Virus record (IMG/VR): IMGVR_UViG_2547132278_000006
DNA from: a virus
Lineage: Duplodnaviria; Heunggongvirae; Uroviricota; Caudoviricetes
Reading direction: 5' to 3' (one strand)
DNA length: 24,771 bases
This document shows, in pieces, positions 3,594 to 24,771 of this stretch. How positions within the stretch are numbered: position 1 is the stretch's first letter; every line of letters starts with the position of its first letter. The notes beneath the pieces were generated by a model, which made no database searches, was not told where the DNA came from, and saw only the letters and a list, made by a program, of their open reading frames with translations. The position numbers and the translations under genes were made by a program.

Positions 3594-3670
3594 AAAAACC
3601 TCACAAAGATAAGTAATCACTTATTCATTGTGTGAGTTTACATTTATTGAGAGAACAAGACCAGATAGAT

Positions 3671-3764: not shown

Positions 3765-4634
3765 TTATTTTTTGATCATTCCGTACATTGCTGAGGCTTT
3801 AGCTTGCTCAACAAAGGAGGATAAATCGACATCACTATAGGTTGGAGACTTCAGAATCTTTCCATCGGAAATTCGAAAACCGATCATCTTATCGGTGCCA
3901 TCAGCATGGCGAAATCCCAGGTCAGAAGAGTCGTATTTGCAGTTGGCCACAGCATGGCGACGCTCTTTGGCATCTGCAGGCCATAATTTTGTCATGTTGG
4001 ACCGATGAATTTCGCCAACCAGCTCGACGACATTGATACCGAGGAAATCAGCCAGTCGATAGGTCATCATGCACGCCACATAGATTTTGTTCATTACACG
4101 GCGCAGTTCCTGAATCAGCTCAGAATCCTTAACAGTCTTGTTCTCAAGTTTATCTGCCAGCTCTTCGAGCATACATGACGCCTCACGAGCTTCCTGAAAT
4201 GGCATTGCCATATCATCGAAAACAGTGTTACCAGGCACAAAAATTGTCTGCATAAAGCGATCAATGCTCTGTTCCTGCGTGTAATAAGTCATGCCGGTAG
4301 AAATACCACCTTTGATGGCGACCATCGTACCAACACCAACGTATAAAAAGTCGGCCATTGCATCCAGCAGTTGCTCAATATCCCCATTCATTGCGGCTGG
4401 AATACCTTCCACTACAGCTTCTTCATGAATCAGGCTTGCACGGAGACGAAGCAGCTCTGGTGTCGGCATAACGCGTCTCGGATGCTGGAAGAGTTCATGA
4501 AACTGATCGACCATCTTGTAAATACTTTCAGTGGCTACACCATGGCCTTCATGCAACTCATATGGTTCTGGCTTAAATCCAATGAGTCGATCGGTGGCAA
4601 GTTTCAGGTGGTCAGTCAGTTTGGTAAAGTTCAT
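3765..4634 (-). CDS. hypothetical protein, possibly all-alpha NTP pyrophosphohydrolase (MazG/dimeric dUTPase-like)
   Basis: 289-aa ORF between thyA and nrdB; LIHEEAVVEG...DIEQLLDAMAD loosely resembles the MazG EExxE...ExxD motif and a second helical half suggests a tandem arrangement. Function by weak motif recall only. Confidence 0.5.
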   Translation of the reverse strand: MNFTKLTDHLKLATDRLIGFKPEPYELHEGHGVATESIYKMVDQFHELFQHPRRVMPTPELLRLRASLIHEEAVVEGIPAAMNGDIEQLLDAMADFLYVGVGTMVAIKGGISTGMTYYTQEQSIDRFMQTIFVPGNTVFDDMAMPFQEAREASCMLEELADKLENKTVKDSELIQELRRVMNKIYVACMMTYRLADFLGINVVELVGEIHRSNMTKLWPADAKERRHAVANCKYDSSDLGFRHADGTDKMIGFRISDGKILKSPTYSDVDLSSFVEQAKASAMYGMIKK

Positions 4635-4711
4635 GCTAGTTTTGTTCCTTCTTAATTCTTGTGATCCATTGTGGCCCAGCGTTGCCAGGCCACATAATGC
4701 TTTGTATCGGT

Positions 4712-5854
4712 TTACAGGTCTGCAAACTGGCTTAGAGAAGCCTTATCCACGGTAGAATCGATCTGACCTACCAGATATGTGCTTTGCTCTGCCTCTTGTG
4801 GTGCAATTTGCAGTGTGTCGGTTAACAACCACTTGTTCATCCAGACCAGCGGATCAGTGGTAACTTCTGGAAATAAAGCCTTCAGGCCAAGACGATTCAT
4901 AGCCAGATTGGTGCGGTATTTTACATACGTTTTGAGAATATCCGCGTTTAAACCAATCATCGAACCATCTTTGAAGAGATAGTCTGCCCAGTTCATTTCT
5001 TGTTCGGCGACTGATTTCATGGTGTCGTAAATGACGTTTTCTTCATCAGCAGCAATCTCTTTCCACAATAAACCTTCGCGACCGGTACGCATGAAGCGGA
5101 TCATGCGTTCAGTTCCTTCGCAATGCAGAGCTTCATCACGGGCAATAAAGCGCATAATTTTGGTGTTACCCTCAAGCAACTTCCGTTCGCCAAAGGCAAA
5201 AGTACATGCAAAACTTACATAGAAACGGATCGCCTCAAGCGCATTAATGGACACCAATGTGCGGAAAAGCTGACGGTGCAAAGGGTATGGCTCCCAGCCA
5301 TATTCATTTACGTACAGACGCTCAAATTCCTTCTCACCTAACGACTGGCGCTCGCAGGTCATCCCATAAAGCCTGTCATATTCAGCAGAGATACTGATCG
5401 CTCGGTTGATGATTTCTTCATCCGTAACAATACCGTCAAAAACAATGCTCGGATCGTCCACCATGCCACGAATAATGTGGGTGTAGCTGCGGCTATGGAT
5501 AGTCTCAGAGAAAGACCACGTTTCAACCCACGTTTCCAGTTCAGGAATAGAGATAAGCGGCAGCAGCGTTGCATTTGGGCTACGTCCCTGAACTGAATCG
5601 AGTAACGTTTGATAACGGAGATTGCTCAGAAAAATGTGACGTTCGTGGTCCCGCAGCTTCGTGTTGAAGTCGATACGATCGCTCGAAATATCAACTTCTT
5701 CCGGCCGCCAGAAGAAAGACAATTGACGTTCAATCAACTTTTCAAAATCACGGTATTTTTGCTGATCGTAACGTGCCACGTTGACAGATTGTCCGAGGAA
5801 CATAGGCTCTTTGGTTGCATTATTAGCACCCAAACGGAACGTTGAATATGACAT
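4712..5854 (-). CDS. nrdB: ribonucleotide reductase class Ia small (beta) subunit
   Basis: Near-colinear with recalled E. coli NrdB ([88 protein letters not shown]). Confidence 0.95.
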
Positions 5855-5877
5855 GTGTTTTTCCTTTTTCTTTTTTG

Positions 5878-5955
5878 GTGCGTTTAAACAAGTTGTTATC
5901 TTATGTGTTTAAACAAGGCTTACAAATCAAAGAGAAGGTGGGGATATCCCCCACC
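5878..5955 (-). promoter_or_regulatory. nrdA-nrdB intercistronic element: two 14-bp direct repeats with a palindromic core, plus a GC-rich palindrome just after the nrdA stop
   Basis: TGCGTTTAAACAAG (5879-5892) and TGTGTTTAAACAAG (5904-5917), both containing the palindrome GTTTAAAC; GGTGGGGATATCCCCCACC at 5937-5955 lies 6 nt downstream of the nrdA stop. Confidence 0.35.
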
Positions 5956-5960
5956 ATATG

Positions 5961-8276
5961 TCAGATTTTGCAGGCTCCGTCGCACTCATCTTCTGGCTCG
6001 ACGGCTACAGCTTGCGCCAGTGGATTCTGCGGTTCGTCGTCATCACGCTTTCCTGCACCATCTCTGGTGTTGTGGTAGTAAAGCGTTTTAACTCCCATCT
6101 TGTAGGCGAGAAGCAAATCTGACAGTAGCGTCATCATTGGGACTTTATCGCCTTCAAAGCGAGAAGGGTCATAGTTGGTATTGGCCGAAATAGCCTGGTC
6201 AAAGAACTTCTGGATGATCGCCACCTTTGTCAGATAGCCGCGGTTGTCCGGCATATCCCACAGGTATTCATACTGTTCCTTCAGTTTTTCAAACTCAGGC
6301 ACGACCATCTTGACGATGCCGTCCTTAGAAGATTTCACTGACACCGGGCCACGAGGCGGTTCGATGCCGTTGGTGGAATTAGTGATCTGGCTGGAAGTCT
6401 CGCATGGCATTTGTGCCGTCAGTGTGGAGTTGCGAAGGCCGTATTTTGCAATACGTTCACGCAGTTCTTCCCACGGCATCTTTAACTCAAAGTTTGTTTC
6501 GCCACTTTCGTCTAATGAAGAACGGTAATGGTCGATCGGCAACTGACCAATTGCGTATTTGGTCTGCTCAAACCAGTCACACTCACCTTTTGCTTCGGCA
6601 AGTCGGCAGCTGGCATCAAGAAGGTAATACTGGATAGCTTCGAACGTTTCATGCACCAGTTTATTGCCAGCGGTATCAGAATAACGAACGCCATTCTTTG
6701 CCAGGTAATAAGCAAAGTTGGTTACACCAATTCCCAAGCTACGACGAGCTTTGGCAGGCACTTCGGCTGCCTCCATCGGATAGTCTTGATAATCCAGTAA
6801 CGAATCCAGTGCAGCAACGGCATAGAACGCCACCTCTTTAAGAGACTCCAGTGAACGGATGGCTCCGAGGTTAAAAGCGGATAAAGTGCATAGCGCGATC
6901 TCACCGTTCGGGTCGTCGGTAAATGCCAGTGGACGGGTGGGTAGGGTGATCTCCATACACAGGTTTGACTGGCGGACAGGTGCAAGAGCAGGAATGAAAG
7001 CGCCATGCTCATTAATATGATCGACGTTCGCAATATAAATTCGGCCCGTGGACGCTCGTTCCTGCATCAGAGATGAGAACAGCTCAATGGCAGGTACTGA
7101 CTTCTTGCGAATTGAATCATCGGCTTCGTATTTATGGTACAGCTTTTCAAACAGCTCCTGGTCTGTGAAGAAGGCTTCGTACATATCAGGCACATCATGC
7201 GGGCTGAACAGAGTGATGTTCTCGCTTCTGACGAGTCGACGGTACATTAGACGGTTACTCATGACGCCGTAATCAAGATGGCGAACGCGGTTTTCATCAA
7301 TACCACGGTTATTTTTCACCACCAGCAGACTTTCAACTTCAAGATGCCAGATCGGGTAAAACGCTGTTGCTGCGCCACCACGAACACCACCTTGCGAACA
7401 AGATTTAACAGCCGTCTGGAAATGCTTCAGGAATGGAATAACTCCGGTATGGGTGGCTTCACCATTGCGGATCTCGCTGCCCAGCGCACGGATACGGCCA
7501 AAACCAATACCAATTCCAGCACGACGTGAAACGTAGTCGATAATTGCGGCTGAAGCTGCACTAATCCCTTTCAGACTATCGCCAGACTCAATCAGCACAC
7601 AACTGGAGAACTGACGGGTTGGAGTACGGACGCCGGCCATGATTGGTGTGGGCAGAGACAGTTTGAACGTACTTGTAACGTCATAGAAACCTTTGACCAT
7701 CTCCATACGTGTTTTGCCAGCGCAGTCGTCTTCCCAATTCTGGAACAGACACATGCCTACCAGCATATAGATATGTTGCGGCCCCTCATGAATCTCACCA
7801 GTAACACGGTTTTGAACGAGGTATTTGCTTTGCAACTGCACCGTAGCTGCATAGCCAAAAAGATCGTCACGTTTCGGCTTAATGTAATTGCCGAGTTCTT
7901 CGATCTCTTCAAACGAATAATGTGTCAGCAAATCCTTGTCATAAACGCCCTTGTTAACGTTCTTGACAATGTGTTGGTAGAAGTTCGGATAGTCGTAACG
8001 ACCGAAGGCATCTTTGCGGATTTTAAAAATGTTCAGGCGGGCAGCCACCTGTGAGTAATTTGGTGCTTCTGGTGAGATCAAATCAGCGGCAGATTTAACC
8101 AAAGCCTCATGCAACTGGCTGGTGGTAATCCCATCAAAAATGCTGGCCGCAGCTCCCATTGCTACAGCGGATGCGCTTACACCACGAATGCCTTCTACGC
8201 CATACATTACGACGCGGTTGTATTTTTCTTCGGATAACGGCTCTGTTTGGCCGTTACGTTTTACGATGCTTATCAT
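5961..8276 (-). CDS. nrdA: ribonucleotide reductase class Ia large (alpha) subunit
   Basis: 771 aa; long stretches match recalled E. coli NrdA (YLVQNRVTGEI, LPTPIMAGVRTPTRQFSSCVLIE, CSQGGVRGGAAT, NRVRHLDYG, RQSNLCMEI, C-terminal ...CDGACKI). Confidence 0.95.
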   Translation of the reverse strand: MISIVKRNGQTEPLSEEKYNRVVMYGVEGIRGVSASAVAMGAAASIFDGITTSQLHEALVKSAADLISPEAPNYSQVAARLNIFKIRKDAFGRYDYPNFYQHIVKNVNKGVYDKDLLTHYSFEEIEELGNYIKPKRDDLFGYAATVQLQSKYLVQNRVTGEIHEGPQHIYMLVGMCLFQNWEDDCAGKTRMEMVKGFYDVTSTFKLSLPTPIMAGVRTPTRQFSSCVLIESGDSLKGISAASAAIIDYVSRRAGIGIGFGRIRALGSEIRNGEATHTGVIPFLKHFQTAVKSCSQGGVRGGAATAFYPIWHLEVESLLVVKNNRGIDENRVRHLDYGVMSNRLMYRRLVRSENITLFSPHDVPDMYEAFFTDQELFEKLYHKYEADDSIRKKSVPAIELFSSLMQERASTGRIYIANVDHINEHGAFIPALAPVRQSNLCMEITLPTRPLAFTDDPNGEIALCTLSAFNLGAIRSLESLKEVAFYAVAALDSLLDYQDYPMEAAEVPAKARRSLGIGVTNFAYYLAKNGVRYSDTAGNKLVHETFEAIQYYLLDASCRLAEAKGECDWFEQTKYAIGQLPIDHYRSSLDESGETNFELKMPWEELRERIAKYGLRNSTLTAQMPCETSSQITNSTNGIEPPRGPVSVKSSKDGIVKMVVPEFEKLKEQYEYLWDMPDNRGYLTKVAIIQKFFDQAISANTNYDPSRFEGDKVPMMTLLSDLLLAYKMGVKTLYYHNTRDGAGKRDDDEPQNPLAQAVAVEPEDECDGACKI

Positions 8277-8349
8277 GTATCACCAAATAAAGAGGGCCAC
8301 TAAATATAGTGGCCCATGTTAATAGATAAGCACTTACCTATCAATGAAA

Positions 8350-8919
8350 TCAAATGAGAGACTTAAGAACATCGCGCACCTGGCGGAACTGATCTGTTTG
8401 CATACCGGTATGGATGGCAGCCACCGCATCAGCCAAATGTTCGTTTTTGTTCACGAGAACATCCTGTCCAGATTGCTTACGACGCAGCCACGGTGCTTTA
8501 GGGTGTTTTTTCGTAGCCCACTGGATAATCTCTTCTTTCGATGTAGTAAGTTTATTGCCGACAAAATGCTTGATTTCGTTTGGAGTAACCTGGATCAATG
8601 GCTTATCCACACACGCAAGTACACCGATACAAATACCGTAAGACGTCTGCGAACGAGAGTTTTGGCTCCCAACCGGTAGCTCACAAAAAACCATATTTGC
8701 CTTATCAATGATTGGCTTCGCAACACGCCATATTTCACTGGCTCGGCGCAGATCGTCACTGTTCACACGAACGGTCTTTTTGTTACTCCCCGCTTTAGTC
8801 TCAACAAGAGTAAGGCCGTGAATCTCAAGTTCGTCCGTCTCAAGGTCTAAAGTGCCCACAGCAAGCCCAAAGTTGCTCATTGAGGGATCAACACCAACTA
8901 CGCTGATTTTTTTACTCAT
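8350..8919 (-). CDS. RuvC-like Holliday junction resolvase
   Basis: N-terminal ISVVGVDPSMSNFGLAV (RuvC ILGIDPG...GYGV pattern), mid FCELP (catalytic Glu region), C-terminal LADAVAAIHTG (RuvC DAADALAIAITH pattern). Confidence 0.6.
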   Translation of the reverse strand: MSKKISVVGVDPSMSNFGLAVGTLDLETDELEIHGLTLVETKAGSNKKTVRVNSDDLRRASEIWRVAKPIIDKANMVFCELPVGSQNSRSQTSYGICIGVLACVDKPLIQVTPNEIKHFVGNKLTTSKEEIIQWATKKHPKAPWLRRKQSGQDVLVNKNEHLADAVAAIHTGMQTDQFRQVRDVLKSLI

Positions 8920-11807: not shown

Positions 11808-12893
11808 TCACACAGCCTCCGAACTCTCCGCTTCGGTGAGGATTTCCTGACACAAAATATCCAACTTGCTTAGATCAAATCCGCCGTCAGTATCGTGGAC
11901 AATCTTGCAATAAGCAGATACCGACTCTCCCAGGCTATCGATTTTGCTGGTTTCCGTTGTGCTTGCTGTCCCTTCCATCATTGATGACTTACGGATGAAG
12001 TTGCACACGACACCTTTTGCACCCATTGTTTTGAGGATGTTCTGGTACTTAATGCCTTCTTCATCGTTCTCAATTACGGCGCGGAAACGCACGTAGTTGC
12101 CGCGAATTTGGTCATCGGCAACATAATCTTCCAGGTTAATGAATTTAGGCGCACTGGTTTCGTAGTGACTGAAACTGCCGTCCGGGTTTACGATCATGTA
12201 ACCAGCCAGAGATCCAACATCTCCCCAATTTTGATGGGTCAGCGCACCGACACTGATAACTCCAGGAATGACCTCTTTATGGTTGTGGTAATGCCCACTA
12301 AGCACGAGACGAAAGCCGATATCCTTTAACTCCTGCGCATCGATACCGACGTCAGGCATTGTTGGAATGGCTTTGTTAATGGATGTATGGATAACAACGT
12401 CATGATTATCACCTTCTACGCTCTTACGTAATGCTTTCAGATCGCAGATAAGCTCTGCATGATTGTTACGCCAGCTAATCAGGTGGACAGTCACATCACC
12501 AATTTTTATTGAGTGTGGGCGTTTGCCACATACGATTACCACGCCGATAGAACTCAGCGATGCTGCTGCGTTGGCGCTATATACTGAATCGTTGGTTTCA
12601 AGATCGTGATTACCGGCCAGCATTACTACTGTCAGATCAAGCTCGTTGATAATCCACTTGTACGTTTCAGTTACGTAATGCAAAACAGAAGGGGACACAG
12701 TTCCTCGGACGTGAAATGTATCACCGGCAACCAACATGTACTTACAACCGGCCTTCTTCATGGCGATGGCTGCTTCTTTCGTTGCTTCCAACTGTATTTC
12801 AAGTCTGGAGTTAAGCCCCTCTGCGTTCGTCGTGGAGAACGCATCCCATTTGTGGTAGTGGCAGTCAGAAATGACGCCGTATGGCAAAGTCAT
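11808..12893 (-). CDS. Mre11/SbcD-like nuclease (calcineurin-like phosphoesterase; T4 gp47-like)
   Basis: Phosphoesterase motifs ISDCHYH, AGDTFH, GNHD, GHYH in canonical order; immediately upstream of the Rad50-like gene. Confidence 0.85.
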   Translation of the reverse strand: MTLPYGVISDCHYHKWDAFSTTNAEGLNSRLEIQLEATKEAAIAMKKAGCKYMLVAGDTFHVRGTVSPSVLHYVTETYKWIINELDLTVVMLAGNHDLETNDSVYSANAAASLSSIGVVIVCGKRPHSIKIGDVTVHLISWRNNHAELICDLKALRKSVEGDNHDVVIHTSINKAIPTMPDVGIDAQELKDIGFRLVLSGHYHNHKEVIPGVISVGALTHQNWGDVGSLAGYMIVNPDGSFSHYETSAPKFINLEDYVADDQIRGNYVRFRAVIENDEEGIKYQNILKTMGAKGVVCNFIRKSSMMEGTASTTETSKIDSLGESVSAYCKIVHDTDGGFDLSKLDILCQEILTEAESSEAV

Positions 12894-13147
12894 GTGTTTT
12901 TCCTTTGTGGTTATTTTGATACAAATTTTAAGAGCAATGAGGAGGTAAACAACTATGCATAACGGTATGTTAGGAATGAAACGAGCGTCTTAATATACAA
13001 AATTTATAAGTAAGTATATACCTATTTATTGTGGCGCAACTTTGCTTGTCTGTATGACTAAAAATAAGACAGGATCACTGTAGAACGCTATGAGAGCTAT
13101 TTTGAGGAGGCGTAGATTCTATCTACGCCAATATACGATCTGGAGGG

Positions 13148-13792: not shown

Positions 13793-13870
13793 ATGTCATT
13801 TTTCTGTGATTGTTAGCCGAGGCAACGATAACCCACCAGGTGCGCCGAAGGTAGTAAATGCCTGTTTTAA

Positions 13871-13951
13871 TTATTCACATATCCACAGGATAGATCCTAA
13901 TAAAGAGATCCATAGATAGATCCTTATATAGATCAAATAAGATCCCCGATC
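13871..13951. promoter_or_regulatory. oriR-like origin element: tandem DnaA boxes followed by a cluster of six GATC (Dam) sites
   Basis: TTATTCACA (13871-13879) and ATATCCACA (13879-13887) are each 1 mismatch from the DnaA box TTATCCACA. GATC at 13893, 13907, 13919, 13931, 13941 and 13948, i.e. 6 sites in 59 bp within AGATCC-type repeats. Confidence 0.6.
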
Positions 13952-13991
13952 GCTGTAAGCCGCGCCACGCCTGGTCTAAAGTCATGTTCAT

Positions 13992-14093
13992 GTATGCTGT
14001 CAGCGGTAATTGATAGTCTGTCAGCGGTTCACCGTATGCTGCCAACTGTTTTTGGTATTCTGTCAGCGGCAAATCAAGTATGCTGTCAGCGGT
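13992..14093 (+). repeat. origin iterons: 5 direct repeats of a 16-bp unit (GTATGCTGTCAGCGGT) at 21-23 bp spacing
   Basis: Units start at 13992 (perfect), 14013, 14034 (degenerate), 14055 and 14078 (perfect); phased at about 2 helical turns; they end 20 bp before the repA ATG, so they overlap the repA promoter region. Confidence 0.8.
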
Positions 14094-14113
14094 TGAATGA
14101 CAAAGGTGTCCAC

Positions 14114-15208
14114 ATGTCCACAAAAAATAAAAAAGGTAAAAATAACAAAGAAGTAGAAGATAACATCGACAACTTTGAAGAAGGTTCCCTTGAATTGTAC
14201 ACAGGGGAACTTGTCCCTAATAGCAACAATACAGTCCAACCAATTGCGTTGATGCGACTGGGGTTGTTCGTCCCCACGCTTAAGGGAACAAAATACAGTA
14301 AACGTAACAAGCCAAATGAGATCGATGCTTCAAAGGAGCTTGTCCAGCTCGAAGTAGCCCGTTCTGAAGGCTATTCCGATATCAAGATAACCGGTCCTCG
14401 TCTCGACATGGATCATGATTTCAAAACGTGGGTGGGCGTTGTGCGTTCGCTGGCAGAATACGGCGAACCTAACGGTCGTGTCGAGTTAAGCATCACGAAA
14501 TTTGCTAAGTTTTGTGGCTATCCATCGTCACAGATCCGCAAAACACTCCGCGACCGGCTTACAAACAGTCTTTTGAAGATCATGCGTACAACTCTGTCTT
14601 TCCAGAGAACGTATGAAGAAAAGAACGTCGACGGCTCTAACAAGATCTCGCTTCTGATGGTGCACCTCATCAATAGCGTGGACTACAACGAGCAGAAAGA
14701 TACGGTGGTGTTCTATGCAGAACCGAAGCTGGCCGAACTATATCGCTTTGACCATAAGGTTCTTTTGCAGTTAAAGGTTATCAATAAGCTACCACGCAAA
14801 GAAACAGCACAGGCTCTGTACACCTTCATCGAAAGTCTTCCAACCAAGCCTGCGCCGGTATCGCTTGCTCGATTGCGTGCGCGACTCAATTTGAGTAGCA
14901 GGAATGTAAGCTCGCAGAATCAGACTATACGTAACGGCTTAAAAGCTCTCCAAGATTTGGGCTATCTCGAATACAGCGAGATTAAGCGAGGGCGGTCGAT
15001 CTATATCCAGATTCACAGCCGTAATCCAAAACTTAAAGTCGCACCGCCAAAACCTGAAGACATCGAACCCAAAAAACCAGATGAGAAAGCCGGGGAAATT
15101 GATGCTAAACAGAACATTATCAACAAGATAACTGAACTTTCGCAGAATTTGACGCCTGAAAATATCAAGATGATTGAGATCCTTTCCAATAGTCTCAAAC
15201 TGCTTTGA
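14114..15208 (+). CDS. repA: iteron-binding replication initiator (RepA-like), 365 aa
   Basis: The only substantial plus-strand gene; flanked upstream by 5 iterons and downstream by 12. Start taken at ATG 14114 (MSTKNKKGK...); the ORF track's 5' extension to 13994 runs through the iterons. Assignment is mainly contextual (P1/F-type organisation). Confidence 0.7.
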   Translation: MSTKNKKGKNNKEVEDNIDNFEEGSLELYTGELVPNSNNTVQPIALMRLGLFVPTLKGTKYSKRNKPNEIDASKELVQLEVARSEGYSDIKITGPRLDMDHDFKTWVGVVRSLAEYGEPNGRVELSITKFAKFCGYPSSQIRKTLRDRLTNSLLKIMRTTLSFQRTYEEKNVDGSNKISLLMVHLINSVDYNEQKDTVVFYAEPKLAELYRFDHKVLLQLKVINKLPRKETAQALYTFIESLPTKPAPVSLARLRARLNLSSRNVSSQNQTIRNGLKALQDLGYLEYSEIKRGRSIYIQIHSRNPKLKVAPPKPEDIEPKKPDEKAGEIDAKQNIINKITELSQNLTPENIKMIEILSNSLKLL

Positions 15209-15740
15209 TATGCTGTCAGCGGTGAAATGTATGCTATCAGCGGCTATTTTTCTGAAATGTATGCTGTGAACGGTTAAAGATATGCTACCAGCGGTATAGT
15301 GAGATGAACGTATGCTGTGAGCGGTAAATCATCTATCACCACTCAATGCTCTGTCATACCTCCCCAGTGGTTACTAACCTCGAAGAGTGCATTCCATATA
15401 GGTTTGCGCTCACTAACATTCTATTGCTATTGCGCTGATTGCTTGTAGTGAAAGGCATTTATTGCCTGCTGCTCCCTGATAGAACGTATGCTGTCAGCGG
15501 TGTTTTATTGAGGAATTTTTGTTTGGATATGCTATCAGCGGTAATTAATGGTATATGTCAGACCTTCGTATGCTGCCAGCGGTAATTTTGTTCTGGTTAT
15601 ACCCATACCGGTACACATTATTCATGCAATGTCTTAAGTATGCTGCCAGCGGTAAAAAATCGAGTAAAGTATGCTGTGAGCGGTGATATAGACTCTCGAT
15701 ATGCTATCAGCGGTAGTTGATTGTGTATGCTGTCAGCGGT
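15209..15740 (+). repeat. incA-like copy-control array: 12 direct iterons of the same 16-bp unit
   Basis: Units start at 15209, 15230, 15260, 15281, 15311, 15486, 15527, 15568, 15638, 15669, 15699 and 15725, all same orientation; most spacings are about 21, 30-31 or 41 bp (roughly 2, 3 and 4 helical turns), with 26 and 70 bp as exceptions; 0-3 mismatches to consensus; a 160-bp iteron-free spacer at 15327-15485. Confidence 0.8.
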
Positions 15741-16550: not shown

Positions 16551-16826
16551 TCACTCAAAAGTGCTGATGCTTAAAATACGCTCAAGATGTTCAGCATCTT
16601 CATTACTGATTTGTTGAGTCTCTTCTACGTACCAACAGTTGCCGTTATGCCAACAAACACCATCATCATCAACCATCACTGAATCAGCGTCATGACCTGT
16701 ATATTCAACAAGAGTACGCTGGATCAGCGTGTCAGTTTCTTCATCGTTAAGGCCATCGACTTTGACCATAAAAAGCGGAAACACGTCATAGACAGTGCTG
16801 GTAACGATTCGAACTAAAACTCTCAT
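16551..16826 (-). CDS. small strongly acidic protein (91 aa)
   Basis: About 18 Asp/Glu against about 5 basic residues; preceded by the conserved ACCACAAAAGGAAAAACAC-ATG initiation cassette. Confidence 0.6.
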   Translation of the reverse strand: MRVLVRIVTSTVYDVFPLFMVKVDGLNDEETDTLIQRTLVEYTGHDADSVMVDDDGVCWHNGNCWYVEETQQISNEDAEHLERILSISTFE

Positions 16827-16881
16827 GTGTTTTTCCTTTTGTGGTTAGTGTTTACTTATTTTGTTAGTTATGAATAGGCGA

Positions 16882-17307
16882 TCAATCTTCTTGGTTAGGG
16901 AAAAACTGTTCAATAACTCTGTCAACGGCTGTGTCTATATGGAGTAGATGCCACACAACCATATCTTTGCTTCCCATGCCTTGTGTGAATATCACGTCAT
17001 ACTTACGCCATGCGCAGTGGAACCAATATGCTGAGTCATCAATTGGTAAATCCTCTCCCGCCTCTTTGAAGTATTTCAGCAGCATTGCCTGCTCTGCCGT
17101 TGGCGTTGGACCTATTTCCTGAGCGTACATACGGATGAATCGCTGCCAGTCTGTCTCGTCGGGGGTTGGATCTGGTGGGGTCATTTCTGCGATAGCGTTT
17201 CGTAGCTGATGCGCCCAATCAGGTTCAGGAAAGCCTTTTGCTACTTCATCATCAATAACATCCAGAGCCACGTTTGCGGCATCGTAGAGTTTCTTAATAA
17301 CTGTCAT
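16882..17307 (-). CDS. hypothetical acidic protein (141 aa)
   Basis: Intact ORF rich in Asp/Glu and Pro; no motif recognised. Confidence 0.55.
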   Translation of the reverse strand: MTVIKKLYDAANVALDVIDDEVAKGFPEPDWAHQLRNAIAEMTPPDPTPDETDWQRFIRMYAQEIGPTPTAEQAMLLKYFKEAGEDLPIDDSAYWFHCAWRKYDVIFTQGMGSKDMVVWHLLHIDTAVDRVIEQFFPNQED

Positions 17308-17356
17308 GTTTTCTTAGCCTTTTAAACAAATTGTTTTCTTAATAAGATAATTGCGA

Positions 17357-18462: not shown

Positions 18463-18491
18463 ATAATAAGTAAGTACTTATATATTTTCAA
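18463..18491 (-). promoter_or_regulatory. sigma70-like promoter for the small-TM/SPFH operon
   Basis: Minus strand TTGAAA-N17-TATTAT (5/6 and 5/6 to consensus), about 30 nt upstream of the ATG at 18433; the spacer holds the near-palindrome ATATATAAGTACTTACT. Confidence 0.45.
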
Positions 18492-20872: not shown

Positions 20873-21901
20873 TTACAGAGAGTCCAGCTCTCTCAGTAGG
20901 TCATCCAGACCTTCATCTTCCGTCGCAGATGCGGCTGCTACAGATGTCGCTGCGACTGCTTCAGACTCTTTGACTGATACTGCAACGGCAGCGGGACTTG
21001 CTTCTGGTTTAAATTCAGTTTCAACGGCACGGAGGATTTCTTCATCAACCAGACTGGTTGGTTCAGAAGCTGGGGTATGAGCGGTAGCTACAGCAGTCGC
21101 ACCCTCCGTATGACCAGTGACAGAGCCAAATCCAGGTAGTGCCGCAGCCGATGTTTTCGCGGTTGAGGAAATTGCTGGTGCAGATGCTGCGGCAGTTGGT
21201 GCAGCGATGCCAATCAGACGACCCATAGTGCGAACTGTCGACAGAAGACGAGTTTCATCAGCTTGATTTGCGTATGCGATCAGATCATGCTGGGTATTCC
21301 AGAATTTATCTTCGATATCGCCTTTGTAGACTTTACGCTTAGGCGAGACGTCATATTTGGTATCGCGACCAGAGCCAGTACGTTTAATCAGGAATGCGTA
21401 GCCTTCCTCTTTGCTCAGTGGATTGCCGATATCATCAGCGATGTCTTCGGTGATTGCTTTGCAGATATCATCGAATACAGTAGACGGCAGCTCGATTAAC
21501 TGGCATTTCTCAGCATCTGCGAAATCCTCACGAGCAGAAAGAATGCCGTTGACCAGGTAGCGAGGAGTGGCACGCATTTGACCGATGCGTTCTTCCATTG
21601 CTTTGTTACCCTTGTGACGAGCGCGACCTTCCATCACCATTTCGCATAGCTGACAAGCGCGACCGTGAGTATGTTGCTCACAAATATAAGCGTTGGTTGC
21701 TTCTTTACCTTCCTCGTTCTGATACTTAACGTAGTGCATACCGAAAGTCTGGAAGAACTTACCGTTTGGGTCGTCTTTATTCGGGAAGATGCGGATATAG
21801 TTGACGCCGTCTTTTAAGCGAGTCAGATCAACGTTGTTACCACGTTTGGCGGCAATGTCTTCACGAGTTTTGTTAAGCAAATCAAGTAATGTCTTAGACA
21901 T
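20873..21901 (-). CDS. gp32-like single-stranded DNA-binding protein
   Basis: IRIFPNKDD matches T4 gp32 IRFLPSKND; Zn-ligand pattern H...C...C-x2-C (CEQHTHGRACQLCEM); Ala/Thr/Ser-rich low-complexity linker; acidic C-terminal tail (EDEGLDDLLRELDSL, compare gp32 DDIDNLLNEI). Confidence 0.75.
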   Translation of the reverse strand: MSKTLLDLLNKTREDIAAKRGNNVDLTRLKDGVNYIRIFPNKDDPNGKFFQTFGMHYVKYQNEEGKEATNAYICEQHTHGRACQLCEMVMEGRARHKGNKAMEERIGQMRATPRYLVNGILSAREDFADAEKCQLIELPSTVFDDICKAITEDIADDIGNPLSKEEGYAFLIKRTGSGRDTKYDVSPKRKVYKGDIEDKFWNTQHDLIAYANQADETRLLSTVRTMGRLIGIAAPTAAASAPAISSTAKTSAAALPGFGSVTGHTEGATAVATAHTPASEPTSLVDEEILRAVETEFKPEASPAAVAVSVKESEAVAATSVAAASATEDEGLDDLLRELDSL

Positions 21902-22018
21902 GTGTTTCTCCTTGTTGTGATTTGGCCGATGGCGCTATGCGCGTTGGGCTTTCGTTCATTCGTGGCTCTTTCGAGCTGTTAAATGATAGATCAGTACTTA
22001 CTTATTATCTATCAAAAA

Positions 22019-22450
22019 TCAACGGGGAGTAATAAAGCGTTCAGAGCCTAATCGCTCTAATTCAACGATGGCCATCTTTGACGCCTGAACGATCATGTCT
22101 CGGCGATGCGAAAAGGCGGCGACAGCATGTTTGTATATGTCTGCGATGTGCCGTGCTTCATCCAACTTCTGCCTTTTAGACAGATACTGTGGGTTTGTTT
22201 TAACCTTAGCGTCCAGTACAGATTCGTTGAACTTAATGCCGTTCATACTCAAGTTCTTACGCTCTGTGTCGTATAGCTTTGCTTCAACAGCTTCAAGGTT
22301 AAGTTTTGCCTCTGCGACACTTCTTTCTGCATGAGCGAGTTTTGAGCCATACTCCATTAAAAGGCGGGGTTGTCTACGCCAGACTTCCTCCAGATTGTCT
22401 CGGTCAAACTCGAGATCAGACATTATTTTCTCGTAAATATCGGTGATCAT
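22019..22450 (-). CDS. hypothetical protein, possibly UvsY-like recombination mediator
   Basis: 143 aa (T4 UvsY is 137 aa); LLMEYGSKLA...AEAKLNLEAVEAKLYD loosely parallels recalled UvsY LYSKWL...AQKKVALKARLDYY; sits next to the gp32-like gene in a RecA/Mre11/Rad50 context. Functional call is weak. Confidence 0.45.
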   Translation of the reverse strand: MITDIYEKIMSDLEFDRDNLEEVWRRQPRLLMEYGSKLAHAERSVAEAKLNLEAVEAKLYDTERKNLSMNGIKFNESVLDAKVKTNPQYLSKRQKLDEARHIADIYKHAVAAFSHRRDMIVQASKMAIVELERLGSERFITPR

Positions 22451-22482
22451 GTGCTTTCCTTTTTACTTATCATCTTATATTG

Positions 22483-22575: not shown

Positions 22576-24485
22576 TCACGACTTAATAGTTTCTGCTACG
22601 TCGGCTAATATCGCTTCTAGTCGTTCTCCCTCTTCAGGTCTGAAGTAAAGAATGTTGGGGTTAAACCCGTAAAAGACAGTAACGTCAAGGTCTGGAAGAT
22701 ACTCCTTCCTGCCGACCAAATCGGATGGCTTGTTTTTGTTGTTAAACAATGCCGTTGCCCGGCTGCCACACGTCAGCACATAGGTCGGACGCACCAGATT
22801 GATCTCTTCACGTATAAAGTCGGTGAACTGGCCGATCTCGTCTTTGGTGTAGTCTTTTTCTTTGTCTTTAACCTTCTTGCAAACGCCTGTGACATAGAGA
22901 TCGCCCATGCGTAAATCTCCAGCCGTCAATAGCTTGGCCTTAAAGTCGTCGTATCCGTTCTCCATAAAGTAACCGGTTCGAGCATCATTGCCGTTCGCAT
23001 TGTCCAGAATGATCATGATTTTCGGCTTAATACCAATGCTGGGGCGGATTAGTTCATCACCTAAGCCCATTTCAGCCGCCATCCGCGTCATGAGTACGTT
23101 AATTTCAGCCGAACGTTTGGGGTTCATCTCAAACGGACGTGAGGCTTTAACTGCGTCTATGACAAGGTTTCCCATCAATTCAGCCTGGTCGCGTAGGCGC
23201 TCTGGATCAGTTGCTGGCAGACTGCCTGGCTCGATGGATGCAAACGCCCCTACTTTTTGCAGCGATTCGCGCACTCGACTATTACAGGCACGTTTCTCGA
23301 CAGCTTCTTCGAATTGCGCCAGTGACTCGAATTTGCCGCCAACTTTTTCTCGCGCTCTCATGATGGCTTGGCAGCCATTCTCAGAACACCCCTTCACAGC
23401 AGAGAAGGGCGCATACAGCACCTGGCTGCCATCTTCAAGCGTGCGGATCTCGATTCGGTTAGATGACACGTTAACGTCTGGTGGCAATACGCGAATGCCA
23501 TAGGTCAGCGCATCTTTAACCAGCCCCTGGTGTTTATCTTCGCCAAGAATAGTGAGAGCAGCAGCGAAAAACTCTGCGGGATAATGAGTTTTCAACCACA
23601 TAGATTGATAACTGATTAAGGAGTAAGCAACAGAGTGTGATTTGTTGAACTGGTAGGCACCATTCTTTTCGAATGCGGTCCAGATCTCCTTCGCTTTCAT
23701 CTCTGATAGCCCTGGATGTGACGCTGTAACGCGTACTGCGTTTATAGGTAGTTTTGCGCCGTACTCAAGTGCCTCTTCGACAGTTTTCAGAGTTCCGTCT
23801 TCGCATTTAAAATGTTCCGCACGGTGAATGCGCTGTGTAGTGCCATCTTCCAGCTCAACGTCTATCCAGCCAGCTTGAGCCTGAACGATGAACTTCTCGC
23901 CCATGCTCTTCATTTTTTCCATGTCTTTTTTGCCGATCGCTTTACGAACGCCGTCAGCTTCAGCCATTGTGAAGCCAGCAAGCAATCGAGTCGCGTTCAT
24001 CGTCTGTTCCTGATAGAGAATCACGCCATTTGTTTCTGCGGTAAGTTCATCAAGAACGGGGTGTAATGATTCCGGCGTCATAAAGCCTTTGGCTACAGAA
24101 ACATAGTCATCCAACATGCCTGACTGAATTGGCCCCGGCCGGAAGAGCGCAGTCGTAGCAACAACCGTTTTAAAGCTCATTGGCTCAATTCCACCACCTA
24201 AATCTTTAAGCAGCTTGCGCATTGGGCCTGATTCAAGCTGGAAAACACCTTGAGTGTACCCAGCAGCAAAACCATCCAGCACCTTGCGATCTTCAAGAGA
24301 AATGGCATCAAGATTGATATCTTCACCTGTGTTCTCTTTTATGTAGCGTTTTGCACTATCGAGCAAATCGAGAGTTGCCAGGCCAAGCACGTCCAGCTTA
24401 ATTAGGCCCATAGCCTCGCAGTAACGCTTGTCAAATGCGATACAACGCGCGTCACCACGGCGCTCAACCGGTGTACGTTCTGTCA
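22576..24485 (-). CDS. dnaE: DnaE-type (Pol III alpha-like, family C) DNA polymerase, 5'-truncated at the IS junction; C-terminal uracil-DNA-glycosylase-family-4-like domain
   Basis: IAFDKRYCEAMGLIKLDVLGL, GVFQLESGPM, ALFRPGPIQSGM, GVILYQEQ and FNKSHSVAYSLISYQSMWLKTHYPAEFFAAALT match the E. coli DnaE palm/fingers from about residue 530 onward; the first ~500 residues are missing. The ORF-track 'start' at 24513 lies inside the IS terminal repeat (IS end at 24486), so the first 9 codons are IS-derived. Confidence 0.75.

Positions 24486-24771
<286 letters not shown>

Follow-up and report, generated by a model that had tools for sequence, protein, structure and literature searches.

The nrdA-nrdB spacer of an SSU5-type phage-plasmid: a terminator-like hairpin, a predicted internal promoter and one copy of a candidate element-wide operator

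In the stretch of viral DNA analyzed here (24,771 nucleotides, hereafter "the window"), two ribonucleotide-reductase genes lie in tandem on the minus strand: nrdA, which occupies positions 8276..5961 and ends in a TGA stop codon at 5961..5963, and nrdB, which occupies positions 5854..4712. The two genes are separated by a spacer of 106 nt (5855-5960) in which, reading along the minus strand from the nrdA stop, a GC-rich hairpin (5955..5937) is followed by two boxes of the form CTTGTTTAAAC(A/G)CA and by the nrdB ribosome-binding site. The window shares 99% identity with the E. coli phage-plasmid Cyrano/pLF82 and 77% with Salmonella phage SSU5; over the nrd region itself, identity amounts to 99.1-99.4% with phage Cyrano (pLF82) and CMS-2020a, and to 77% with SSU5. 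The window belongs to an E. coli phage-plasmid of the SSU5/pHCM2 type. Phage-plasmids of the SSU5/pHCM2/pMT type are common in clinical Enterobacterales, and the nrdA-nrdB junction was matched in 735 plasmid records from Klebsiella, Escherichia, Enterobacter, Salmonella, Yersinia and other genera; S. Typhi pHCM2 and Y. pestis pMT are among the relatives. Spacers were compared across 10 lineages, namely the window, Enterobacter pEH4236, pHCM2, Y. pestis pMT, two Klebsiella groups, pFF979_1, LR890700, Cronobacter pCS1, and Moellerella.

Several features of the wider window concern the state of the element itself. A perfect 286-nt inverted repeat is present at both window ends (41-326 and 24486-24771) and corresponds to the IstB end of an IS21-family element (PF01695, E = 4e-36), giving the 24-kb segment a composite-transposon-like bracketing. 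One copy cuts an epsilon-exonuclease-like gene after approximately 45 codons, while the other truncates a DNA polymerase III alpha-like gene, of which a 645-aa C-terminal part is left (24513..22576); since both genes are interrupted, the phage-plasmid copy in the window may be replication- or lysis-defective. At least seven copies of an iteron-like repeat, TATGCTGTCAGCGGT, surround a repA-like gene at 13994..15208 (at 13991-14022 and 15207-15729), and this region is probably the plasmid replication origin; many GGATCTAT repeats are also found in the spacer at 13793-13993.

The first feature of the nrdA-nrdB spacer is a palindrome, GGTGGGGGATATCCCCACC, with a T-rich tail, TTCTCTTTGA, identified by a terminator scan at 5927..5955 on the minus strand (hairpin 5955..5937, tail 5936..5927). 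It begins 5 nt past the nrdA TGA, or 6 nt if its 17-nt core is counted, which agrees with the initial annotation of this DNA, where a GC-rich palindrome had been placed 6 nt after the stop. The hairpin involves eight pairs, six of them G-C, a loop of 3, and a tail with 5 T in 8, and in the window it folds at -14.5 kcal/mol. In all 10 lineages, a hairpin with an energy of -14 to -20 kcal/mol is located right after the nrdA stop, with a closing pair that varies by lineage (G-C, A-T, or C-G) and with GAAA loops being common. The combination of a GC-rich stem, a short loop and a T-rich tail, the last of these interrupted (TTCTCTTTGA), is as expected of an intrinsic (Rho-independent) terminator, and transcription is predicted to terminate at this point.

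Between the hairpin and nrdB lies a putative sigma70-type promoter, TTGTAA-16-TAAGAT, which had previously been overlooked. It consists of a -35-like hexamer, TTGTAA (5920..5925, minus strand), followed by GCC (5919..5917), and of a -10-like hexamer, TAAGAT (5898..5903, minus strand), 16 nt past the -35 hexamer; the 13 nt between GCC and TAAGAT are box 1. With 8/12 matches to the sigma70 consensus (criterion, at least 9/12 with a spacer of 16-18 nt), and with A2 and T6 of the -10 hexamer present, this promoter scores too low for the threshold of the scan, whose list does not contain it, and the case for it therefore rests on conservation and on a common architecture. The TTG of the -35 hexamer is invariant in two spacer alignments and TAAGAT is invariant in the six alignable lineages, its position being taken by TATCAT, TACCAT, CAAAAT or TAAAAT in the four divergent ones. 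The form TTGnnn-16-(T/C)AnnAT follows the hairpin in 10 of 10 lineages, even where the remaining spacer is unalignable, starting 38-40 nt past the stop codon in nine lineages and 55 nt past it in Moellerella (in pEH4236 the promoter spacer has ACT, not ACC, and the match, missed by the pattern, was read by eye). The most conserved spacer block in the six alignable lineages, AATAAGATAAyAAyTTGTTT, corresponds to the -10 hexamer together with the operator described below. In addition, the architecture TTnnn(n)[G/A]CC-N13-[T/G]AnnAT is common to approximately 11 other coding-strand sites of Cyrano, nearly all of them intergenic, and the pattern has 18 matches on the coding strand of that genome versus 5 on the other. 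The promoter is predicted to fire, with a transcription start near 5891. In pFF979_1 (Klebsiella), a hypothetical ORF of 134 aa (583-987) is inserted between the conserved nrdB promoter and nrdB, and the spacer thus tolerates gene insertion downstream of its promoter.

The nrdB ribosome-binding site and start context, AAGGAAAAACAC-ATG (5852..5866, minus strand), is common to other genes. The initial annotation had pointed to a conserved nrdB leader, AGGAAAAACACATG; this leader is indeed present, but it is not special to nrdB, since it is a translation-initiation context whose same 14-mer is also found at no fewer than three other window genes (12891, 16824, and 21899). Five genes of the window share a near-identical initiation region, ...AAAGGAAAAACAC-ATG (5852-5876, 12891-12915, 16824-16848, 21899-21923, and 22448-22472), which is unusually uniform for unrelated genes.

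The two boxes, CTTGTTTAAACACA (box 1, 5904..5917) and CTTGTTTAAACGCA (box 2, 5879..5892), both on the minus strand, lie exactly 25 bp apart, as had been described (5917..5904 and 5892..5879), within a 25-nt tandem duplication that is 76% identical. As a pair alone, they are not clearly beyond chance (2 matches versus 0.58 expected, a number reached in 11 of 100 shuffles), and they are significant solely as part of a 13-bp palindrome, AAACAAnTTGTTT, referred to here as Motif A and usually preceded by (T)AAGA, whose register emerged when occurrences of the box were sought across the complete genome of phage Cyrano, which is nearly identical. The register in which the boxes had first been drawn was shifted: the conserved unit is AAACAAnTTGTTT, that is, box 2 plus the AACAA on its left. 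Box 2 represents the right arm of Motif A and its 3' flank, while box 1 is a right half-site (TTGTTT) located within the promoter spacer. In the nrdB spacer the operator-like palindrome reads TAACAAcTTGTTT (5886..5898, minus strand) and differs by one mismatch from AAACAAnTTGTTT, which agrees with the Motif A regulon of SSU5-type phage-plasmids as defined within this analysis (core AAACAAnTTGTTT with at most one mismatch). It is intergenic and lies in a promoter-like region, its centre 38 nt before the nrdB ATG, overlapping the last base of the -10 hexamer TAAGAT and the predicted transcription start. Box 1 is conserved in pHCM2, pMT and Enterobacter, degenerate in Klebsiella and Cronobacter, and missing in the remaining lineages, and it may be a neutral remnant of a duplication. 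A second Motif A site in the window, AAACAAtTTGTTT (17324..17336, minus strand), is exact and lies in a terminator-to-gene spacer upstream of the DUF7238 gene at 17307..16882; it corresponds to the related TGTTTAAAAG that had been noticed upstream of that gene. The window thus holds two matches (5886-5898 and 17324-17336), versus 0.14 expected.

A search for the signal elsewhere in the element, which had been proposed earlier, revealed that it is element-wide, with approximately 20 sites per genome; the duplicated box is therefore a piece of an element-wide operator rather than an nrd-specific device. Cyrano carries nine exact copies of AAACAAnTTGTTT, every one of them within its intergenic DNA, which totals 14.2 kb, whereas its 94 kb of coding sequence contain none, the mean expectation from second-order Markov simulations being 0.005; with at most one mismatch, there are 15 intergenic sites versus 0.27 expected. 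In an unbiased count of all inverted repeats of 5-6 nt, AAACAAnTTGTTT ranks first among palindromes in each of four genomes, namely Cyrano, SSU5, Klebsiella KpPF25 p2, and Enterobacter pCP102, and SSU5 has 20 Motif A sites, 11 of which are exact. An extra GA on the left arm or TC on the right arm, on either side, extends the motif at 50 of the 62 sites of these four genomes, generating a symmetric site of 17-19 bp, GAAAACAAnTTGTTTTC (19-bp duplex form, AGAAAACAAnTTGTTTTCT). That the extension can sit on either arm is consistent with a DNA duplex being recognized symmetrically, while its bias toward the upstream, sense side (33 versus 13) is not predicted by a purely symmetric DNA site.

Motif A sites also adopt defined positions relative to promoter-like hexamers, and 13 of the 16 Cyrano sites lie 18-47 nt before a start codon. 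At five Cyrano promoters (93165, 95801, 96286, 97940, and 98425), of the form TTnnnG-15-GATAAT, Motif A is located 9-10 nt plus AAGA past a GATAAT/TATTAT -10 hexamer, with the palindrome centre approximately 20 nt past that hexamer, near +14; at three others (93114, 97190, and 85818), it abuts or overlaps the -35 hexamer, just past a terminator. Pairs of sites 24-25 bp apart are found upstream of terS (57/82 in Cyrano and 56/81 in SSU5), and also in the nrdB spacer of Klebsiella CP034055, Cronobacter, and LR890700. Upstream of terS (Cyrano OV696614 57-95; SSU5 56-94), the pair is followed by a terminator-like hairpin, GAGCGCATGGACGCGCTC, and a T-rich run, and the pair and hairpin together may be a control point for the late operon. 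The nrdB-spacer site itself is kept in pHCM2, SSU5, pMT, Enterobacter, Klebsiella CP034055 and Cronobacter, is replaced by a degenerate triple site in LR890700, and is missing in pfekpn2511-2, pFF979_1, and Moellerella. A scan of viral contigs for GAAAACAANTTGTTT yielded, among the matches listed, mostly single chance matches; most of the listed contigs with several matches are approximately 90-112 kb in size and presumably SSU5-like, such that no second phage family is seen among the matches listed. No description of Motif A, or of gene regulation in SSU5/pHCM2/pMT-type phage-plasmids, was found in the literature searched, and the Cyrano paper mentions no operator; the motif is thus apparently an undescribed element-wide operator. 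Motif A is not known to fit the consensus sequences of PhoP, KdgR, Zur, RcsB, parS, KorA, or sigma28.

A second element-wide palindrome, TAAGTnnnnACTTA (core TAAGTA-N2-TACTTA), occurs in promoter-like intergenic regions and ranks second in both Cyrano and SSU5; the window contains five matches (3610-3623, 13011-13024, 16845-16858, 18467-18480, and 21991-22004) versus 0.54 expected. A weaker variant lies near 8320-8340, upstream of nrdA, and with Motif A at nrdB, the two genes may be under different regulators. The apparent nrdA leader also harbors a terminator-like hairpin, GGGCCACTATATTTAGTGGCCC, with a T tail (8294-8315, minus strand), located between a promoter-like TTGATA-17-TAACAT sequence and the nrdA ATG.

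Published transcriptomes allow a comparison of transcript levels across the junction. In RNA-seq of LF82/Cyrano lysogens, reported as log2(FPKM+5) (Misson et al. 2023, PMC9928086, S1 table), values are 2.86-4.51 for nrdA and 3.47-5.91 for nrdB, and at the gene level nrdB is above nrdA in every one of the 10 samples, the difference being 0.6-2.2 log2 units, which speaks against uniform co-transcription, with the qualification that the nrd values lie near the floor of 2.32, come from repressed lysogens, and could differ through mRNA stability. The next gene downstream, mazG, is higher than nrdB in the same data (PMC9928086). Most Motif A-carrying genes are silent or low in the lysogen samples, with the exception of parA, which carries a perfect site yet is expressed in lysogens, an observation that counts against a repressor.

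These features could be brought together in a reading to which we assign a probability of approximately 0.6: the nrdB spacer would combine a hairpin resembling a terminator with an internal promoter and with the operator of a regulator that is probably encoded by the element and most likely a repressor. The spacer would represent one copy of a cassette that is used throughout SSU5/pHCM2/pMT-type phage-plasmids. In such a cassette, the hairpin and its T-rich tail would end or attenuate nrdA transcripts, or stabilize their 3' end, and the sigma70-type promoter TTGTAA-GCC-N13-TAAGAT would restart transcription for nrdB. The palindromic operator TAACAAcTTGTTT, a member of the family GAAAACAA-n-TTGTTTTC, would be the third component, overlapping the -10 hexamer and the predicted start, with box 1 as a half-site within the promoter spacer, 25 bp further upstream. 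The nrdB operator and approximately 20 others at promoters across the element, which would serve terS, parA, a helicase gene, cobT, tciA, and many small early genes, would be occupied by a dimeric regulator that binds DNA, and it is the global switch of the element that would determine nrdB output, in part independently of nrdA. That a protein binds Motif A, and that binding leads to repression, is suggested by the variable placement of the sites in the RNA polymerase footprint, their two-fold symmetry, and their occurrence in pairs, as would be expected of a dimeric DNA-binding repressor. The initial annotation's proposal that the junction holds element-specific regulatory DNA able to uncouple nrdB from nrdA is supported, while a role confined to the nrd genes is not, the motif being a signal of the element as a whole. 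With such a cassette, simple co-transcription of the two reductase subunits, as in the host, is not expected. In addition, a single conserved palindrome at approximately 20 promoters could serve as bait for the regulator and as a marker for predicting the regulon of the element, and would make it possible to examine how the choice between plasmid and lytic states is enforced.

Other readings of the same sequences have to be weighed against a repressor operator. Base pairing between the two boxes in the mRNA (stem of 9 bp, loop of 15 nt) could generate an attenuator, as had been suggested, or a translation-control hairpin; the arms, 5882-5890 and 5906-5914, complement each other perfectly and form a stem in the minimum-free-energy structure, but such complementarity is a trivial outcome of repeating a palindromic word. 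The fold, at -7 kcal/mol, is the same as that of shuffled sequences (z = 0.08), the RNAalifold consensus reaches -2.9 kcal/mol with a covariation term of -0.06, a search of positions 4600-8500 against Rfam matched no family (the best being a chance DapZ, E = 0.98), and box 1 would lie outside the nrdB transcript if this starts near 5891, all of which makes box pairing highly improbable. The z-score of -2.4 obtained for the fold of the whole spacer is driven by the terminator hairpin alone. Recognition of the boxes by the host NrdR protein, or by another host nrd regulator, is suggested by the fact that the host nrdAB genes are under NrdR control, and is hardly credible: the boxes had already been judged unlike the NrdR consensus, and no NrdR box (a 16-bp palindrome, acaCwAtATaTwGtgt, usually paired) is present in 5855-5960 at up to 3 mismatches. 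The sole match in the window, CCACTAAATATAGTGG at 8297-8312, is upstream of nrdA, carries 3 mismatches, and does not exceed chance (20 of 100 shuffles); this sequence is the core of the nrdA-leader hairpin GGGCCACTATATTTAGTGGCCC. A conserved nucleoid or architectural protein of the host, such as an IHF-like factor, would explain why Escherichia, Salmonella, Klebsiella, and Enterobacter elements all carry the same motif, and Motif A resembles the IHF consensus, WATCAANNNNTTR, as well as the H' site of lambda, TATCAATTTGTTG, with agreement at 10 of 13 positions, a resemblance that we take as a lead and not as a test. However, two IHF consensus positions are missed, IHF sites are asymmetric, the perfect two-fold symmetry of Motif A, which includes positions within the IHF "NNNN", is left unexplained, and among the matches listed most of the viral contigs with multiple matches are approximately 90-112 kb in size and presumably SSU5-like; a host factor is thus very unlikely. 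Finally, Motif A could be the DNA site of an activator or timing factor for a class of phage promoters (middle or delayed-early) and no repressor site at all. Its centre lies near -40, a class II activator position, at the three Cyrano promoters at 93114, 97190, and 85818, the associated -35 hexamers are weak, and SSU5 retains the motif though it is without the CYRAN_45 repressor region; on the other hand, the position of the motif varies from approximately -40 to approximately +14, and the nrdB site overlaps a -10 hexamer and start, which a bound activator would block. An activator site is, in our judgement, quite unlikely.

The question of which protein could bind Motif A leads to a further alternative, namely that the motif acts in RNA. 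When the small genes lying downstream of Motif A sites were scanned against Pfam, no DNA-binding domain was detected, and no autoregulatory Motif A site was found at any of the candidate regulator genes. Several of these candidates were set aside: CYRAN_45, an HTH "putative repressor" that is expressed in lysogens, belongs to a region that is missing from SSU5, which yet has 20 sites; the ParB-like CYRAN_119 and CYRAN_120 (ParB_N) are essentially silent in lysogens, which speaks against lysogenic repressors; and CYRAN_123 (88 aa), with no Pfam or PDB relative, is barely expressed there. CYRAN_114, located outside the window (Cyrano 100780-101301), is a full-length match to the FljA family (PF03614, E = 1e-80), its C-terminus being weakly Hfq-like; lysogens express it (log2 4.2-8.1), and no PDB relative was found for it. 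This "repressor of phase-1 flagellin" is a core gene of the SSU5-type phage-plasmid family, with FljA-like homologues in 830 plasmids, of which 341 come from Klebsiella and 62 from Yersinia; Klebsiella and Y. pestis being non-motile, a target other than fliC/flagellin is implied. Motif A could thus be located at the 5' end of short leaders and be bound there by CYRAN_114, leading to translation repression or mRNA destabilization. Such a role would be in line with the position of 13 of 16 Cyrano sites closely upstream of a start codon, with the preference of the GA extension for the sense 5' side, and with the block that FljA-type regulators impose on fliC mRNA translation (PMC2652032). The Salmonella fliC leader contains CATCAAGTTGTAA, centred 24 nt before the ATG, which has a CAAGTTG core in common with Motif A; this match, at 8/12, is non-significant. 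On the other side, Motif A as RNA would by our own estimate form no more than a marginal 5-bp A-U stem, while an exact palindrome with an extension on either arm points to a site in the DNA duplex. Several sites precede the -35 hexamer and directly follow terminators, and the FljA-like protein of KpPF25 p2 is only 36% identical whereas its motif is unchanged. Action in RNA is therefore considered unlikely, and the FljA-family protein as binder of Motif A is a speculative lead. Equally doubtful is the broader proposal in which a FljA-type protein (PF03614) would be the master regulator of the whole SSU5/pHCM2/pMT1 family, with AAACAAnTTGTTT as its operator; if true, a FljA-family protein would control approximately 20 promoters or leaders, including those of nrdB and the terminase operon, even in non-flagellated Klebsiella and Yersinia pestis, while to our knowledge FljA is known solely as a post-transcriptional repressor of flagellin.

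A repressor operator that is repeated across a phage-plasmid can be compared with several known systems. In phage P1, itself a plasmid-prophage, the sites of a single regulator, C1, are dispersed genome-wide at promoters of replication, nucleotide, and other lytic functions, and Motif A sites are likewise scattered over the whole element; P1 operators, however, are asymmetric 17-mers (ATTGCTCTAATAAATTT), while Motif A is a perfect palindrome of 13-19 bp, and ATTGCTCTAATAAATTT has no match in the window at up to 3 mismatches. KorB/KorA of the IncP plasmid RK2 offers a similar geometry, a 13-bp palindrome of 6-1-6 form present in approximately 12 copies at or near promoters of the plasmid backbone, with KorB being a global repressor of the ParB family. 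The SSU5-type element also encodes two ParB_N proteins, but the operator sequence is unrelated (the KorB operator OB, TTTAGCSGCTAAA, has no match in the window at up to 2 mismatches), and CYRAN_119/CYRAN_120 are those that are essentially silent in lysogens. In the lambdoid OR1-OR2-OR3 array, palindromes are placed over -35 and -10 hexamers at approximately 23-25 bp centre to centre, a spacing that permits cooperative dimer pairs. Motif A sites similarly overlap -35/-10 hexamers and are spaced 24-25 bp apart, but they are distributed over approximately 15 transcription units and not within a single immunity region, and the HTH repressor gene CYRAN_45 is missing from SSU5, which keeps all Motif A sites. 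The host nrdAB operon, whose two genes are co-transcribed, is controlled through NrdR boxes and DnaA/Fis sites upstream of nrdA; the element likewise places a class Ia ribonucleotide reductase operon under regulation, with the difference that its signal lies between nrdA and nrdB and shows no NrdR match. The FljA/fliC pair, finally, is called to mind by the PF03614 core gene of the element and by the fliC target, which lies in a short 5' leader approximately 24 nt before the AUG, but FljA acts on RNA, the symmetry of Motif A is of the DNA type, and the 8/12 similarity is non-significant. The feature in the nrdB spacer is ordinary in kind and the regulon motif seems undescribed; by analogy, the Motif A system resembles in function the operators of P1 C1, the KorB regulon of RK2, and the tandem operators of lambdoid phages.
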